Below, piece after piece: positions 37,340-44,992 of a stretch of 64,000 nucleotides of DNA. The position numbers and the translations under genes were made by a program. The number at the start of each line of letters is the position of its first letter. Position 1 is the first letter of the stretch. Below the pieces are notes generated by a model. The model was not told the DNA's origin, searched no databases, and saw nothing but the letters and a program-made list of their open reading frames with translations. The DNA is from an uncultured Planctomycetaceae bacterium (GTDB lineage Bacteria > Planctomycetota > Planctomycetia > Isosphaerales > Isosphaeraceae), in NCBI GenBank assembly GCA_963833985.1, contig CAWIAD010000002.1, positions 736,001-800,000 on the forward strand, read 5' to 3'.

Positions 37340-37909
37340 TCAGGGCTGGGCGATGCCAATGACTCCCACCGCCACACGCCCACCGGCATTGCCGACAGGC
37401 TGGCTGTAGTCATCGGCCTTCTCGTGAACCACGAGGCCGCGGCCGATGATCGAGTGCGGGCCCTCGAAGGTGAGGTGCGGATCGACGAGGTCGATCGATG
37501 CGTTGCCGTTCGCGTTCGCCGTGATGTTGCCCAGATCGCCGACGTGCCGCATGGACCCTTCCTGCTTGCCGTGCTTTTGGGCCTCGGGGTTGAAGTGGCT
37601 GCCCGCCGCCTTGCCGTCCGGCGACCAGACGCCGAACTCGTGCACGTGGAACCCATGCTCGCCGGGGGTCAGGCCGGAAAGCTCGCCCTTGACTTGCATT
37701 CCGCTGTCGGTCCTGGTGAAGGTCACGCGCCCTTCAACCTTGTTCCCCTTGGTGGCCAGAAGGATTGCCACGGCCTTGGTGACCGTCGCACCCTTGGCGT
37801 GAGCCTTCTTCATTTCCTGGCGGGCCTCTGCGGGATTGTGCAATCCCGAGAGGGCGAGGCAGACCAGGAGACCCACCGCGAGGGCGGCCGCACCTTTCTT
37901 CAACGACAT
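37340..37909 (-). CDS. sodC: Periplasmic Cu/Zn superoxide dismutase
   Basis: Signal peptide; HGFHVHE, AGSHFNP, KHG, RHVGDLGNI, SIIGRGLVVHE..DD, GNAGGR. Confidence 0.95.
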   Translation of the reverse strand: MSLKKGAAALAVGLLVCLALSGLHNPAEARQEMKKAHAKGATVTKAVAILLATKGNKVEGRVTFTRTDSGMQVKGELSGLTPGEHGFHVHEFGVWSPDGKAAGSHFNPEAQKHGKQEGSMRHVGDLGNITANANGNASIDLVDPHLTFEGPHSIIGRGLVVHEKADDYSQPVGNAGGRVAVGVIGIAQP

Positions 37910-38258
37910 GTCCATTCTCCCCAGGTAATGATCTCTGAAATCTCTGTGCAGTGCACGCGCGAGGCTTGATGCCAGGCTAGCTGGACTCAGGTTGGCTCTC
38001 AAGAGTCTGCCTGCACCTGCGTGACCACTTTACGCGAAAGACGTCTGGAAAACGCCCGCACGCCCGCCAGGATTGACCCTTTTTCATCGAACCGGCCAAC
38101 TCGGGGCGGCACGGGCAGCTCATGGACAGGGGCTCAGTGCGCACGGATAATGCCAGGGGTTCCGAGGCTGCCACGTTCCCCAGCGCGTTCTCGGGCTTGA
38201 AGCCGCGCGTGGCCCGCTGAGGAGGGAGAACGAGAGCAGCCCCGGCCGGAACAGCAAG

Positions 38259-39492
38259 ATGGGTGAGCCGTCGTATCAATCCCCGGACTCGATCCTCGAA
38301 CGATGGCTGCTGCGGCACCAGCAGCGCCGGTGTGCCGGTGTACCAACGGTCTCGGTGCTGGCCGGCCGGCTGGAAGAGACGGTCCCCGGGCTGCGGGACT
38401 GGGCCTCGCGTACGAATCGAGGCATGGATTGCATCGAGGCCGATGCTCTCGATTTCGACGCCATGCTCTGGGCCTGGATTGATCGATTTGTCGCCGAGTT
38501 CGACCTCGTCGGCGAAGCGACAGCCTGGCTGTCCAGACAACTGGGCTGCTCGTCTCGCGAACTCGATGGCTCCCTCCGCGGCAGGAGTGGCGTGGAGCGG
38601 GCCATGTTCCTGGAGCGGACCTTGCCCGCGACGTCCCGCACCGGGGTGGAAGCCGCGTGCCGCTGGCTGCTGTCTCATGAGAGGCCAATGTCCGGGGCTC
38701 TATCCCGGAACGAGCTGGCGGCGGAGCTGGACTCCGGTCCGGGAGCCTTGCCGCAACCGTGGGCGCGACTGCTCATCGCGCTGGGGGCGTTGATCCCAGG
38801 CGCAACGGCAGCCGTTGCTGGCGATGGTCTGGCGGGAACGTGGGAACGCCCCGGAATCGGGCCGCGCGCTTTGCAGCCTCGCTCGTTGGTCTCTGAATCT
38901 GGCCACGGCACAGCCGGCCCTGGCGCTCGCGCTGCTGCTCGAACCGGCCGCCTGGAGCGCCTACCTCGAGCATGCTCCGCCATCTCGAATCAAGGCTCAG
39001 CTCCAGGAGTCGGCACTGCCGCGCATCGTCTGGTCTCCGGGAGCCACGGAGCCGAGCTTTCCCGAGGTCGGGCTGGAGCACCCCTTTCGCCTGGCGGAGG
39101 ATCGCTCTGCCGCGGATCCTGCCGATGCGGAAGCGGCGGACCGCGCACGCAGCGCGGCCGAACGATTGCTCTTCGAGCGGCTGGAATCGCTGCCCGAGAC
39201 GGCTGGCGTCTTCCAGCTCAATGCGACACTTGATTTTCACTTCGGTCCCCACCGGTCCATGGAAATCGATCTCGCCGCGCCCTCCTTGATGCTGGCGCTG
39301 GAAATTGACGGCTACTACCACTTCCAGGATGCCGGCTCCTACCGTCGCGATCGCCGCAAGGACCTGGAACTTCAGCAGCGTGGATACGTGGTGGTTCGCG
39401 TGCTCGCCGAGGACGTCGTGGGCCGGCTGGAAGAGGTTCTCGAGACAATCCGTGCGGCGGTCGCGTTCCGCAGGCACGAGGCACTCCGATGA
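38259..39492 (+). CDS. Protein with a C-terminal DUF559/Vsr-like endonuclease domain (frameshift near 38810)
   Basis: ARSAAERLLF, EIDL, LEIDGYYH, RRDRRKDLELQQRGYVVVR in ORF 38815; N-terminal part in ORF 38259. Confidence 0.82.
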
Positions 39493-39505
39493 AGGGGAAC
39501 GATCG

Positions 39506-40573
39506 ATGACCGAAGAACTGGACCTGCGCCCGATCGACTTGCTGGTTCTGACGCGGCTGCTGGCAACCGGCGAGAAGGGTGACACCGTGTCCGGCATCAG
39601 GAAGGACCTCGCACCCTTGCTGGAACATCGCTGGTCCGGCAACGTTTTGACCCAGGTCCTGGACCGCACCTTGATCAGGCTGTCCTCCCTGGGTCTCGTC
39701 ATACAGCGACCGGGCAAGACGAAGCGAGCCGCTCCGGGCGTGCTCCTGACCGAGGACGGCAGGCGAGAGGCACTGGCGGCCCTGAACGTCAGCGCGCTTC
39801 CCGCCAAGCCCAAGCCAACCTGGTCCGTCCTGAAGAAATCGCTGCTGGTGGCGCGGGCGCTGGGGCTGTCCGCGCCTGGCCCGGCTTTTGCCAAGGGCAC
39901 GGGGCTGAAGGCGGTCCTGTTGCGGCAGAAGTTCGGCCTGCCGCTGGGTGATTACCCCGACCTGAAGATCGTCAAGACCGAGCTGACCCGAACTCTCCTG
40001 GGGATGGGCCCGAAGGAGAAGATCACCCTGGATACCGTACAGGGGGCACTCTTTGGCCGGGAGCTGGGCGAGCGGCGGCCCGCCGACCCGAAAAAAGTGC
40101 TGGACCGGCTGGTTTCCAGGCATCTGGGTGCCCGCCGCGATGACGACAGGGAATGGCGTGAGGCCGTGCTTCGCGGGTGGATCGATGGGTCGGCTGATGG
40201 CCCTGCTGCGCAGGACTCCGCCACGCCCTCGACGCCGCGCACGGAACCGTCGCATGCCGCACGCGCCATGGACCTGGCGGCGTTCGCCCGCAGCACCAGG
40301 GCCGCGGCCGAGAAGTGTCCGACCGGGCGCTTCGGCGACGACAAGGTCTTCATCATTCACGTGTGGAACACGCTTCAGAGCCACGACGAGTTCCGCGGCA
40401 CTGATCTGGCTGGCTTCAAGCAGCGGCTCGCCGAGGCGAATAATGCCCGCCTTCTGGACCTGAGCCGGGCCGACCTGGTACAGGCCATGGACCCGGAGGA
40501 CGTGCGTCGCTCCGAGGTCACCTACGACAACGCCACCTTCCACTTCATCCGCCTCGGATCCGAAAGGCACTGA
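39506..40573 (+). CDS. Hypothetical basic protein, possibly with winged-helix domains
   Basis: AAGGGG RBS before ATG 39506; 355 aa; 13 bp after the nuclease stop and 6 bp before the ATPase start. Confidence 0.8.
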   Translation: MTEELDLRPIDLLVLTRLLATGEKGDTVSGIRKDLAPLLEHRWSGNVLTQVLDRTLIRLSSLGLVIQRPGKTKRAAPGVLLTEDGRREALAALNVSALPAKPKPTWSVLKKSLLVARALGLSAPGPAFAKGTGLKAVLLRQKFGLPLGDYPDLKIVKTELTRTLLGMGPKEKITLDTVQGALFGRELGERRPADPKKVLDRLVSRHLGARRDDDREWREAVLRGWIDGSADGPAAQDSATPSTPRTEPSHAARAMDLAAFARSTRAAAEKCPTGRFGDDKVFIIHVWNTLQSHDEFRGTDLAGFKQRLAEANNARLLDLSRADLVQAMDPEDVRRSEVTYDNATFHFIRLGSERH

Positions 40574-40579
40574 CCTCCC

Positions 40580-43500
40580 ATGACGCCTGAGACCTCGGCC
40601 TCGCTCGACCCGCCGGCCGCCGTGGGCAGCGGTCCTCATGACGACCCCCGCGTGGCGGCATTCTGCTCGGAAGCGCATCCGGGACTCTTCCACGCGGTGG
40701 CTTACGGCAGTGACATCTGGCGGGCCGATCCCTTCGACGTGCCCTCGATCCATCGCAGCGTGCGCGAGGCCTTCCGGCAAACCGTCGATCGCGTGTGTGC
40801 CGCGGGCGCGCTGCCGACCGGCCGGATCCTGCTGCTGCTGGGAGACTCTGGAAGTGGTAAGACGCACCTGATGCGCGCCTTCCGCAACCAGGTGCACTCG
40901 TCTCACCGCGGTTATTGCGGTTACATGCAGATGACCGCGCTCACCGACCAGTATGGCCGCTACGTCCTGAATAACCTCGTCGAATCGCTGGACAAGCCCT
41001 ATTTTGAGCACGAGTCGGCGATCTCGGGCCTGATGCGGCTCTCCTCGGCGCTCGCCCGCTCGCTGGCCGCCAGCGAGCCGGCAAGCAGTCTGCTGGAGAA
41101 GCTCAGGGAGGAGGAACTGGACCAGCGAACGCTCGACCACATCGTGGGCGAGCTGGCGGACCGCGTCATCCTCGACGACCGCTTCAACTCGATCAACGTG
41201 TTCCTGGTGCAGGCCCTGCTCTACTTGCAGTACGACGACCCGCGAATCAAGGCCCGGGTCCTCAAGTACCTGCGCTGCGAGGACTTCACGGCTCATGACC
41301 GGCAGCTCCTGGGCGGGCTCATCCCCGCCACGTACCCCGACGCGCCCCACTGGATCATCCAGCGGCTGGGCGAGCTGATCTGGGTGCTCGAGGGCGTGCC
41401 GCTGATTCTCTGCGTCGATCAGCTTGAAGATATGTTCGACATGGAAAACGCGCCGGCACGGTTCCGGCGCTCCCTGGCCACGCTCTGCGACATCGTCAGC
41501 CGGCTGCCCTCCGCCATCGTGGTCATCTCCTGTCTGCAAGACTATTACGTGAAACTCCGAGAATACCTTGCCAGACCCACCCAGGATCGCATCCAGGGAA
41601 ATCGCGGGCCGATTCATCTGAAGGAGTCGCGCGAGCCGGATGAGATCGTCCAGATCATCGCCGAGCGGTTGCAGTTCCTGTTTCGATCGGCGAATGTACC
41701 GTGGGACCCGGCTGATCCCACGTATCCCTTGCCGGCCGACCTGCTGCGGCGGCTCGCCGGACGGAGGACGCGCGACGTGCTCGGCGAGTGCCAGCTCTTT
41801 CGCGACCGCTGCGTCGCCGATGGGAGACTGGTTGCTTACCCTTTTGATAACGAGCCGGACAGGCCGCCGGAACCACCGTTCTCCATCGAGCAGGCATGGA
41901 ACGAGCATCGCGCGACGGTCCCTCCGGTGGTGCCATCGGAAGAATCCGAGCTGGCCGGAATTCTCGGAGGCGCCATCGGCTGCTGCGCGGAAGAGCTTGC
42001 ACCGGGCCTGAAAATCTCGGCCAGGACCGACGGGCGGTACGTGCATGTTGAGATCCATGGTCGGGATGACAGCGTGGAGCGGATGCTGGTGGGCGTCTGC
42101 AACAAGGCCGCGCAGGGGGGCGGGCTGGGCAGACAGGTCGAGGAGCTGAAGACGCGCGCGGGTGAGCTCACGGCGGTCGTCGTCCGATCGACGGCGTACC
42201 CGGCCAGTGCGAGAGCCGTGGTCTCCAGGCTGCTCGAGGAGCTTGTCGCCGGCGGTGGACGCAAGGTGGTCGTGGAAGACTCCGACTGGCGATCCATGCT
42301 CGCGTTCGAGAGCTTTCGCGCCGGCCAGACTGCCACGTCCGCGCTGCATGCCTGGAGACAGCAGGCACGACCGATCACGAGCCTGAAGTCGCTGCGCGAG
42401 ATCCTTGATCTGGACCGCCTGGAGCAGGGGCCGTCGCGTGCTGGCCGGAAGTCCGCTGCCCCCGCCCCGCCGAAAGAACCTGCGGTGAACCGGCCCGCAG
42501 TGAAAGGGCCCGCGGTGAACCCGCCCGCGGTGGATGAGCTGGAGAAGGCCGGGTGCGTCGAGCCCGACGTGAGCGGGCCTGGCGACGTCGCGGTTGTTCT
42601 CAGGCCGCTCAACCCACGGCGGCCAGTCTGGCTCGATGTCGGCAAGACGGCTGATCGTCGAGCCGGCAATGTGGTGCTGGAAGACGCGGAGCTGACGCGG
42701 CACGCGGCATTCATCGGAGCGCCTGGGTCTGGGAAGACGACGCTTGCCCTGAGCCTGGTCGAGCAGCTTCTGGTCGCGGGGATTCCGGCCATCCTGGTGG
42801 ATCGCAAGGGAGACCTGTGCGCCTATGCGCAGACCGGCATGGGTCTGCGCAACGGGCTGGACGGAGGCCTGGCGAAGCGGGCCGACGAGCTGCGGAGCCA
42901 TGTGGAAGTCGCCCTCTATACACCCAGGCGGCCTGATGGCCGGCCCCTGTCCATCACGGCGGTCCCCGCTGGCCTGGGGACGCTTTCCGACCTGGAACGC
43001 CGCCAGGCGGCGCGCTTCGCGGCCTCCGCGCTGGCTGGAATGATGAACTACGGCAGCAGCAAGCGCGACCAGTCGTTGCTGGCGATCCTCGGCCGGGCGA
43101 TCGACCTGCTGAGCCAGGAGCAGCCCCAGGTCCCGCTCCCCATGGAATCGCTGCTCAGCTTCATCGGCGAACGCGACCCCGGCCTGATCAACGAGATCGG
43201 CCGGCTTGACGTCCGGCTCTTTGACAAGCTGGTCCAGGACCTGGAGACCTTGCGGCTGAACCATGGAGACCTGCTGGCGGCGGAGGGCGAGCCGCTGGAG
43301 ATCGAAGCCCTGCTCGGTCTGGGACCGTACGCGAAACCCGGCAAGACGCGGCTGAGCATCATCAGCACCAAGTTCCTGGGCAGCAACCAGGACGTCCTGT
43401 TCTGGATCGCCCAGTTTGCGATGGAAGTTGGGCGCTGGATCAGCCGGGCACCCGCCCCGGACGGCACCCTTCAGGCCGTGCTCCTGTTCGATGAGGCCGA

Positions 43501-43879
43501 TCTCTACCTTCCCGCGGTGCGTCAGCCCGCCAGCAAGGAACCGATGGAGCACCTGGTGCGCAGGGCTCGATCCGCAGGGCTGGGCCTGCTGCTGGCCACC
43601 CAGAACCCTGGCGATTTCGACTATCGCTGCCGCGATAACATCCGTACCTGGTTCGTCGGGCAGGTCAAGGAGGAGAACTCGATCACCAAGATGAAGCCGA
43701 TGCTCAGCGAGTGCCGGGTTGACGTCGCGGGCCTGCTGCCGGGGCAAACCACCGGCGAGTTCCACCTCATCCGCGATGGCAGCGCCATCGGTTTGTCCGC
43801 GAACCCGTCCGCCGTCGATGCGCGCCAGCTCTCCGAGCAGGAAATCCTCGACCTGGCACGACGAACCTCCCAGCTCTGA
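40580..43879 (+). CDS. Double P-loop ATPase: N-terminal AAA/STAND-like domain and C-terminal HerA/FtsK-like (DUF87/DUF853-like) domain
   Basis: GDSGSGKT plus LCVDQLE; GAPGSGKT, ILVDRKGD, LLFDEAD, RRARSAG, LATQNPGD. Confidence 0.88.
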   Translation: MTPETSASLDPPAAVGSGPHDDPRVAAFCSEAHPGLFHAVAYGSDIWRADPFDVPSIHRSVREAFRQTVDRVCAAGALPTGRILLLLGDSGSGKTHLMRAFRNQVHSSHRGYCGYMQMTALTDQYGRYVLNNLVESLDKPYFEHESAISGLMRLSSALARSLAASEPASSLLEKLREEELDQRTLDHIVGELADRVILDDRFNSINVFLVQALLYLQYDDPRIKARVLKYLRCEDFTAHDRQLLGGLIPATYPDAPHWIIQRLGELIWVLEGVPLILCVDQLEDMFDMENAPARFRRSLATLCDIVSRLPSAIVVISCLQDYYVKLREYLARPTQDRIQGNRGPIHLKESREPDEIVQIIAERLQFLFRSANVPWDPADPTYPLPADLLRRLAGRRTRDVLGECQLFRDRCVADGRLVAYPFDNEPDRPPEPPFSIEQAWNEHRATVPPVVPSEESELAGILGGAIGCCAEELAPGLKISARTDGRYVHVEIHGRDDSVERMLVGVCNKAAQGGGLGRQVEELKTRAGELTAVVVRSTAYPASARAVVSRLLEELVAGGGRKVVVEDSDWRSMLAFESFRAGQTATSALHAWRQQARPITSLKSLREILDLDRLEQGPSRAGRKSAAPAPPKEPAVNRPAVKGPAVNPPAVDELEKAGCVEPDVSGPGDVAVVLRPLNPRRPVWLDVGKTADRRAGNVVLEDAELTRHAAFIGAPGSGKTTLALSLVEQLLVAGIPAILVDRKGDLCAYAQTGMGLRNGLDGGLAKRADELRSHVEVALYTPRRPDGRPLSITAVPAGLGTLSDLERRQAARFAASALAGMMNYGSSKRDQSLLAILGRAIDLLSQEQPQVPLPMESLLSFIGERDPGLINEIGRLDVRLFDKLVQDLETLRLNHGDLLAAEGEPLEIEALLGLGPYAKPGKTRLSIISTKFLGSNQDVLFWIAQFAMEVGRWISRAPAPDGTLQAVLLFDEADLYLPAVRQPASKEPMEHLVRRARSAGLGLLLATQNPGDFDYRCRDNIRTWFVGQVKEENSITKMKPMLSECRVDVAGLLPGQTTGEFHLIRDGSAIGLSANPSAVDARQLSEQEILDLARRTSQL
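42479..42538 (+). repeat. Four imperfect 15-bp in-frame repeats (PAVxx linker)
   Basis: PAVNR-PAVKG-PAVNP-PAVDE in the linker between the two ATPase modules. Confidence 0.8.
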
Positions 43880-43957
43880 GACCCTTCATCGCCACAACAA
43901 ACCGCCTGGCGGATCGACCTGCTCGCGTCGCGAACAGGTCTGTATCCGAGAGCCCGC

Positions 43958-44992
43958 TCACTTGGCGAACTCCGCGTGCGGATGCGTCGTGTAGAAGTGC
44001 AGGCCGTGCCTGGGGTCAAGGAAGCGGTACAAGGGGACTGCGCCGGGCGTTGCGTCCGACTGGATGAAGAAAGCGATGCCGGTGGTGTGGAAACCCTTGC
44101 GCCCCACTCCTTCGCCATCGTCCGCGGTTGTATAGATATGATCCTTCCGTCCGTGCCAGGCGTGAACGGCCACAGCGCCGGGCACGGCGCGATCAAAGAC
44201 GTGGCAAACGACCCCTTCGGAGATCAGGCCTGCCCCGCCGGGGCCGGCCGGGCTCGTGGTGTACTGGTGCGCCCCGGTGCGGCGGTCAAACCAGCGGTAG
44301 AGCGGCACCGTCCCTGGCTGGGGAGCGGCGAAGACGTAGCCGGCGACGCCCTCGAGCTGGAACCGCGTCAGGTCGAAATGGAGAACCACCTGCTGCGCCG
44401 TGTAGTCGATGCCGCAGAACGCCCCGTACTGCTTGAAGACGGCCGAGCGCTTGAGCACCTCGGCATTGAGCCTCTGCGAGAGCAACGAGGTGCGGCCGGC
44501 GGCGATCTGGGTGACCAGATCGTCGAAGAACGAGCCCAGCAGCTTCGCCAGCAGGCCGGCCATACCCTCCAGCTCCGCTTTCTTGACGGCTTCCACGTCC
44601 ACCCGGAAGCGGGGCGTCGCGTCAGGGCCGGCCTCGATGTTGACCGCGGTGCGGATCTCGAAGCGGAACCTGCGCAGGCCCGGCGTATGGTTGCTGGAGC
44701 GGCTCACGAGCTCGGAGACGGCTGCGCCCACGGGCGGCCGGAATTCTCCCTCCACCTGACAGGCGGTCAGGAAGCGTCTGCGCCCCGCGTCGATGGCCAG
44801 CAAGCGGTAGGAGTGGACCGTGCCGCGATACTGTCCCTGCTTCTCGAACGGGCTGGGAGGAAGCTGCTCCACGACGCCCGCGAGGAAGTCTCTGTCAAGC
44901 CGCACCTCGGTGGCGGCCCGGGCGCGGTGGGCCGGGAGCAGGACTGTCCACAGGCAGACCGCCAGGGTCAGGTGCAGTGCGCAGCGCTTCAT
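43958..44992 (-). CDS. Secreted protein with C-terminal PLYR...HxYTT repeats (DUF5648-like)
   Basis: Signal-like N-terminus; TVPLYRWF..HQYTT, HIYTT, AVPLYRFL..HFYTT. Confidence 0.75.
   Translation of the reverse strand: MKRCALHLTLAVCLWTVLLPAHRARAATEVRLDRDFLAGVVEQLPPSPFEKQGQYRGTVHSYRLLAIDAGRRRFLTACQVEGEFRPPVGAAVSELVSRSSNHTPGLRRFRFEIRTAVNIEAGPDATPRFRVDVEAVKKAELEGMAGLLAKLLGSFFDDLVTQIAAGRTSLLSQRLNAEVLKRSAVFKQYGAFCGIDYTAQQVVLHFDLTRFQLEGVAGYVFAAPQPGTVPLYRWFDRRTGAHQYTTSPAGPGGAGLISEGVVCHVFDRAVPGAVAVHAWHGRKDHIYTTADDGEGVGRKGFHTTGIAFFIQSDATPGAVPLYRFLDPRHGLHFYTTHPHAEFAK

Follow-up and report, generated by a model that had tools for sequence, protein, structure and literature searches.

Gene content of the locus

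We describe a three-gene operon in a window of 64,000 nucleotides (positions 736,001 to 800,000 of contig CAWIAD010000002.1, assembly GCA_963833985.1) from an uncultured Planctomycetaceae bacterium. The C-terminal domain of the second gene's product, here called g2C, is predicted to contact the ATPase encoded by the third gene. The host is a soil planctomycete, which its nearest named relatives place in the Isosphaeraceae; its genome (10.2 Mb, 2 contigs, 96% complete) contains a single copy of the system. The genes lie on the plus strand at 38259-39492, 39506-40573 and 40580-43879, with intergenic gaps of 13 bp and then 6 bp, and are flanked on the minus strand by sodC (Pfam Sod_Cu, E 3e-44) and a gene for a DUF5648 protein. 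These coordinates confirm the layout given in a first-pass annotation of the same DNA, and all motifs that it quoted for the three genes are present. Upstream of gene 1, a sigma-70-like promoter match (38123..38151, plus strand) agrees with 10 of 12 consensus positions and is unique within 37900-44100, where shuffled sequences predict 0.3 matches; it is likely the operon's promoter, and putative as a consensus match alone.

Gene 2 (39506..40573, plus strand) encodes 355 amino acids. Its AlphaFold2 model, with a predicted local distance difference test (pLDDT) value of 88, consists of an N-terminal MarR/PadR-like winged-helix domain (39506..39793, plus strand), a helical middle part, a disordered linker and the conserved g2C domain (40265..40561, plus strand; residues 254-352, 99 residues), which carries the motif LSRADLVQAM. 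The fold shows one winged helix, which judging from the model likely binds DNA, and the order of elements in g2C is itself winged-helix-like. Searches of Pfam, PADLOC and NCBIfam with gene 2 gave no match, and its relatives also belong to no Pfam family; a profile of gene 2 has matches in 2389 clusters (50% identity). A profile search with g2C against the PDB and Pfam gave no meaningful match, a search of viral models for the gene 2 fold returned nothing at E 0.001, an ESM Atlas search returned unnamed clusters only, and no internal homology was found among the three parts of gene 2. In one relative (P0143), the winged helix and middle part are duplicated ahead of g2C, and two metagenome contigs (L195 and L196) encode stand-alone g2C proteins of ~100 residues.

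Gene 3 (40580..43879, plus strand) encodes 1099 amino acids that form an Orc1/Cdc6-clade AAA+ ATPase, a middle domain resembling a restriction endonuclease (REase), a linker and a HerA/FtsK-type ATPase. Pfam detects an N-terminal AAA domain plus HerA_C/DUF87, as expected from the two ATPase modules that had been annotated. The AAA+ domain (40637..41869, plus strand) has intact Walker A and Walker B motifs and two invariant arginines, R337 and R398. In the modelled middle domain (41873..42427, plus strand), the elements run helix, three strands, helix, strand, helix, strand, as in the REase fold. The catalytic motif of REases, D/E-x-K, is expected on strand 3; here this strand has G/A-V-C in its place, and catalytic residues are absent. 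Profile searches with the middle domain against the PDB and Pfam gave no meaningful match, and on the basis of the model we consider it probably an inactive REase. After the strand at 561-564, the model contains only helices up to residue 616, and relatives that lack HerA end within 1-31 residues of this point. The HerA/FtsK-type ATPase (42638..43876, plus strand), which is optional in relatives, has about 95 additional residues and conserved HerA motifs. It matches HerA entries in the PDB and the PADLOC profiles mad8 (E 4.6e-22, 377 residues over 283 profile positions) and HerA (E 3e-10); NCBIfam HerA_antiphage reaches 14.5 bits, where the cut-off is 800. The host genome encodes another HerA-like gene (G000:C2, about 5497355-5498479) with 32% identity to this part of gene 3. 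Two gene 3 relatives (L056:11159-11758 and L073:916-1500) carry an additional N-terminal domain of ~200 residues, alike by eye and with no Pfam match.

Gene 1 (38259..39492, plus strand) consists of an N-terminal region and a Vsr/DUF559-type nuclease domain (39265..39462, plus strand; Pfam PF04480, residues 151-216 of the open reading frame (ORF) named for position 38815). The DUF559 match exceeds the Pfam cut-off (E 3.8e-6), a profile search matches 3hrl and 3r3p, and the acidic residues E349, D351, E362, D364, D378 and D382 (L007 numbering) are invariant in the 22 of 22 rows covering them. When the N-terminal region was compared with the AAA+ domain of gene 3, 205 columns aligned with a score of 29.2, and none of 30 column-shuffled controls exceeded 23.8; the HH probability is just 13%. 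Sequence comparison thus makes this region likely to be a degenerate, inactive AAA+ domain.

The annotation of gene 1 as a DUF559-like nuclease held, with one qualification: the gene is interrupted. Its reading frame shifts near 38797-38800, while relatives have a single ORF, mostly of 390-450 amino acids. No frame changes were found in the other window genes against six related loci. The ATPase tree places the window in a clade of 6 rows (support 100) whose other five members lack gene 1, one of them retaining its last 49 codons; gene 1 is intact in the sister pair (Aquisphaera). The frameshift fits early decay, with an assembly error as the alternative. Because of it, the copy in this genome probably works without the nuclease, unless the break is such an error. 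Gene 1 also has a low codon score; we considered this as a further sign of decay and rejected it, as intact relatives share the low score in several of 7 cases. At another locus (L058:8846-11083, P0162), genes 1 and 2 form a single 745-amino-acid frame in an error-rich assembly, and this frame could represent either a fusion or an artefact.

Conserved core and optional parts

We collected 100 loci and removed 14 duplicates. Among the resulting 86, 62 could be scored for the nuclease and HerA: 35 have both, 11 have HerA only, 16 have neither and 0 have the nuclease only. The remaining loci comprise 4 with gene 2 and no gene 3, 2 with gene 3 and no gene 2 match, 6 that are cut short and 12 that are ambiguous. 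Gene 2 has no downstream ATPase despite sufficient flank in L059, L061, L092 and L099. Of 279 metagenome loci, the best 80 contain 24 scorable ones, near-duplicates included, with corresponding counts of 15, 4, 5 and 0. On a 59-row tree, HerA undergoes 6 state changes and the nuclease 7.

The core is thus gene 2 plus the front of gene 3, i.e., the AAA+ domain and the probably inactive nuclease-fold domain. Relatives may lack HerA and the DUF559 nuclease, and the losses are nested, in that the nuclease is never retained without HerA. HerA-less loci have clean ends, and no recurring replacement effector was found after their ATPase. Examples of intact operons are those of Singulisphaera acidiphila (L022) and Aquisphaera insulae (L017), and the two-gene form occurs in Paludisphaera. 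This natural deletion series reveals which parts depend on which. The grouping is not random, because gene 3 follows gene 2 in 63/63 cellular-type metagenome loci (among the best 80 of 279) whose downstream sequence extends for 600 bases or more. The expectation that the genes travel together in other genomes was therefore borne out, with both optional parts present in 35/62 scorable loci. However, a three-gene core, as originally proposed, is not supported, since HerA and the nuclease have been lost repeatedly.

Relationship to known systems

The operon closely resembles the Orc/CDC6-coupled HerA/FtsK capture systems, which are computationally predicted anti-invader systems (Rakesh, Aravind and Krishnan 2024, PMC10853773). 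Here and below, comparisons with published systems refer to the parts of each paper covered in our analysis. The cited set combines an Orc/CDC6 AAA+ domain, followed by a probably inactive REase, with an active REase and an insert-bearing HerA/FtsK ATPase; its winged-helix protein is encoded separately. Further reported features are a winged helix after the inactive REase, a DndG-related gene with 2-4 winged helices, a HerA of clade 2, 4 or 5 in that paper's classification, a mobile neighbourhood and two REase families. Our operon has in common with this set the Orc/CDC6-family AAA+ domain of gene 3, the HerA/FtsK ATPase (absent in 16/62 scorable loci), and an active-type REase, namely the DUF559 domain with its invariant acidic residues, which is frameshifted here and is likened by kind and not by REase family. 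The middle domain of gene 3 fits the inactive REase in its order of elements and its absent catalytic residues, with no profile match. Compared to the 2-4 winged helices reported, gene 2 shows one, plus the winged-helix-like order of its C-terminal domain, and it has no PADLOC match.

Other features differ from those described. Gene 3 has no winged helix after its inactive REase, and a winged helix is instead found in gene 2. The site is fixed, inherited vertically within genera and devoid of recurring mobility genes, the gene 1 nuclease has a degenerate AAA+-like N-terminus, and HerA is dispensable. Because the winged helix after the inactive REase and the mobile context both fail, we file the operon as a variant of this kind, already described by prediction, and not as a new class. 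The first-pass annotation had inferred that the operon matches no named system recognized by its author and may be undescribed. In view of this close match to a described kind the inference is not supported. PADLOC and NCBIfam yielded partial ATPase matches only, and identity with a named system through these collections was rejected. The terms planctomycet, myxo, DUF559 and Vsr do not occur in the main text of PMC10853773, whose supplement could list the operon family, and phage copies of the adaptor domain are not mentioned in the parts covered. Our literature searches found nothing on the operon family or on phage copies of g2C; the same supplement may bear on both.

Other systems are less similar. 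DndFGH also consists of three genes, the middle one for a winged-helix subunit, and includes a large protein ending in HerA/FtsK (PMC10853773). However, the operon has no P-loop kinase DndF, inactive SWI2/SNF2, methylase or TRD domains, and its nuclease is a separate gene. PADLOC found no DndF or DndG in the operon; DndH matched at E 0.063 in the HerA part only, and its eight-domain architecture differs. Unlike BREX and BREX-Related Capture, as far as described in the covered parts of PMC12839542, the recurring neighbours include no PglZ, methyltransferase, GNAT or TGT. PglZ had no match in the operon or among 118 neighbours of 26 loci. MADS is a set of genes, mad1-mad8, with a methyltransferase; only the HerA part of the operon matches mad8, and there is no recurring fourth gene. 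SIR2-HerA, DUF4297-HerA and NurA-HerA each pair a stand-alone HerA with a cognate partner gene; the operon shares the HerA-type motor with them, but lacks the partner genes and has its motor fused behind an AAA+ ATPase.

Predicted contact between g2C and the ATPase

A predicted complex of gene 3 (residues 20-616) with g2C scored 0.76, while the best of 3 controls scored 0.00. The mark against which we read this score is attained by 116/157 solved complexes and 2/215 mismatched pairs, and is only roughly applicable given that our own alignments were used. The runs share at least 89% of contacts, and the pLDDT of the partner is at least 88. On the g2C side, the predicted interface comprises residues 276-279, 312-315, 318-324, 326-328 and 341-343. 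On the gene 3 side, it comprises the P-loop (89-90), the Walker B exit (283-288), residues 319-325 and 346-353, and the lid (390-406). Thus, the predicted docking site of g2C is the nucleotide-binding face of the AAA+ domain. In AAA+ proteins, this face is the docking side for the next subunit, and because the two would use the same face, g2C would cap or gate the oligomer. PDB searches found no solved complex like that of g2C and the ATPase. The earlier suggestion that gene 2 is an adaptor agrees with this prediction: in the model, gene 2 behaves like one in that it is predicted to bind gene 3.

Phage copies of g2C

We found g2C in 30 viral loci of IMG/VR, 26 of them distinct after removal of 4 near-duplicates, which supports the link to phage conflict drawn in the first-pass annotation. 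None of the 30 loci contains other parts of the system. Among viral contigs, 110 pattern matches to the ATPase were obtained and none was confirmed, nor were any close relatives of P0278. A search for g2C among longer proteins gave 1130 matches, of which 120 were listed. Among those listed, 28 examined proteins lack the rest of gene 2, and most have 2-4 tandem g2C copies. The occurrence of g2C apart from the rest of the system in viral contigs, and as tandem copies in other proteins, is new. Whatever its role in phages, g2C is a large unannotated domain common to them and bacteria.

A receiver-domain match was present in 13/23 scanned proteins of this group, 4 of them over the Pfam cut-off, and two IMG/VR contigs encode the same layout (L102:8480-10276 and L105:8771-10267), in which a receiver-like domain is followed by two g2C copies. 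This arrangement suggests phosphorylation control of the phage proteins. Modules are often split by NP motifs; such a motif was considered as a signature of viral carriers and rejected, being present in some and not general.

A PHROGs scan of 88 proteins from 25 of the 26 viral loci placed head or packaging genes nearby in 9/25 loci and other phage genes in 8, with no match in 8. The g2C copy directly follows a portal gene in L100, L103 and L129, and lies between terminase and major head genes in L108 and L119. Viral g2C is often part of large multidomain proteins, frequently in head-packaging modules, which it has in common with phage polyvalent proteins (Iyer et al. 2017, PMC5512222). A difference is that g2C belongs to no Pfam family; it could still be one of the unnamed domains of that paper, with which it was compared by term search.

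Proposed mechanism and alternatives

Taking these results together, we propose that the operon is a DNA-directed anti-phage machine, and that phage g2C copies compete for its ATPase as decoys; we give this combined reading an even chance of being correct. In the first step, the winged helix of gene 2, a fold seen in the model, would bind DNA. Next, g2C would dock on the nucleotide-binding face of the AAA+ domain, as predicted. Orc1/Cdc6 proteins usually have a DNA-binding module in cis; here gene 2 would provide one in trans and gate assembly of the ATPase on DNA. The fused HerA ring would then, as its family suggests, pump the captured DNA, and gene 1, recruited via its degenerate AAA+-like domain, would cleave it. 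Because no methyltransferase travels with the system, targets may be recognized by the structure or state of the DNA, such as ends or intermediates of replication or packaging, and not by marks. Finally, free or tandem phage g2C, packaged or expressed, would fill the docking face of the ATPase without bringing a DNA-binding part.

A more specific version is that g2C acts as the switch of a planctomycete and myxobacterial defence machine by capping the ATP site of its Orc1/Cdc6-type ATPase, and that diverse phages have copied g2C (single, in tandem or behind a receiver) into head-packaged decoys. We regard this version as possible but doubtful. If it were true, the phage proteins would constitute a new anti-defence family, and would be evolutionary proof that HerA/FtsK capture systems, which are so far predictions with no known counter-measure, act against phages. 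A decoy role would also imply a mode of regulating Orc1/Cdc6-type ATPases in trans. The operon is a compact three-gene example of these systems; its predicted contact gives mutagenesis a defined target, and the phage proteins listed here are candidate inhibitors of it.

It is important to consider the observations that weigh against this proposal. In its favour, the RADL core of the phage copies falls inside the predicted g2C interface, and phage g2C keeps R321-A322-D323 at 0.93-1.0 in the set of tandem and longer proteins from the g2C search. However, in the viral matches RADL is invariant by construction, because they were selected with a RADL pattern. Outside the RADL positions, agreement between phage and host consensus is 0.29-0.30 at the predicted interface versus 0.42-0.49 elsewhere, and the gene 3 side of the interface has a conservation of 0.48 versus an average of 0.60. 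This low conservation could reflect host-specific coevolution or another shared ligand. The strongly conserved g2C residues S336, E337 and H346 lie outside the interface. Trees (in one of which 14 long-branch rows were dropped) split host and phage g2C with weak mixing and are too weak to give a direction of transfer. Moreover, the 16 loci with neither optional part consist of the adaptor and ATPase front only (L064 being decayed), with no evident effector. The site is fixed among housekeeping genes, with sodC in the flank of 28/79 loci. Neighbours are mostly non-defence genes, and PADLOC matches among the 118 neighbours of 26 loci are mostly generic kinases, proteases and WD40 proteins.

Some of these observations would be explained if the system were a defence or DNA-processing machine, and g2C were a module that binds nucleic acids or nucleotides in general and serves phages for purposes of their own, e.g., to coat injected DNA, with no mimicry involved. 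In line with this rather unlikely alternative, phage copies do not conserve the periphery of the interface, and K280 and K305 join S336, E337 and H346 as residues outside the interface that are conserved in both host and phage groups. Furthermore, the viral copy in L116 is fused to a helicase, monophyly of host g2C is not rejected by the approximately unbiased (AU) test (p 0.54), and DNA-binding domains have been reported in phage polyvalent proteins (PMC5512222). On the other hand, the most conserved surface motif (R321, A322, D323, L324) is within the predicted ATPase interface, and cellular-type g2C is nearly always encoded directly before the ATPase (63/63 metagenome loci; 4 exceptions among the 86 loci).

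The phylogenetic distribution bears on a different explanation, in which the adaptor and Orc1/Cdc6 ATPase form a lineage-specific housekeeping module for DNA binding or repair, with HerA and the nuclease as ancestral extras in the process of being lost. The system is carried by 13/13 other genomes of the same genus and by 7/8 and 3/3 genomes in two further genera, so that the vertical inheritance named in the first-pass annotation as a sign of a conserved core is found within genera. Consistent with a housekeeping role, the location beside sodC is fixed, the two-gene core is retained with intact Walker motifs, and searches of plasmids and cultured phages gave no match. However, the distribution, which the first-pass annotation had suggested checking, is patchy: 64/120 family genomes carry the system, and 19/47 high-quality ones, so that it was not found in 28 of the latter. 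Elsewhere it is rare, the ATPase profile identifying it in 3/400 genomes sampled in the rest of the phylum and 4/300 sampled around Minicystis; these searches scored 3-4 candidates per genome at strict thresholds, and distant forms may therefore be missed. The repeated loss of parts, the presence of g2C in phages, and two myxobacterial copies that adjoin STAND-WD40 and EAD1-trypsin conflict genes also argue against a housekeeping module, which we consider unlikely. Cultured carriers are Singulisphaera, Aquisphaera, Tautonia and Minicystis, and across the family carrier genomes tend to be larger (5.6-16.5 Mb) than those of non-carriers (4.8-10.5 Mb).

Genomic neighbourhood

The TnsC/MuB-like targeting ATPases of mobile elements suggest one more explanation, that the system is a domesticated remnant of an element with such an ATPase. 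This is very unlikely, in that the recurring neighbours include no transposase or integrase, a single IS66 gene occurs among the 58 neighbours scanned, and the site is stable across the family. In 79 loci, we also found no recurring fourth gene or methyltransferase among the neighbours. Enrichment near defence islands, which had been suggested as a check on the defence hypothesis, was not supported, as neighbours are mostly housekeeping genes.

Individual loci show further associations. In Polyangium (L060:6874-16861) and the second Minicystis copy (L077:3386-15068), the system lies between YcaO/TfuA genes and the STAND-WD40 and EAD1-trypsin genes, and Prok-RING and caspase genes are immediately upstream of the first Minicystis copy (L055:5306-8955). 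An additional stand-alone HerA gene is located ~3.4 kb downstream of the system in L047 (9560-11308). Genes for ABC-type ATPases (AAA_21-like) adjoin the system in L013 (14241-16228) and lie downstream of it in L015, L031 and L038, hinting at a modest insertion hotspot.

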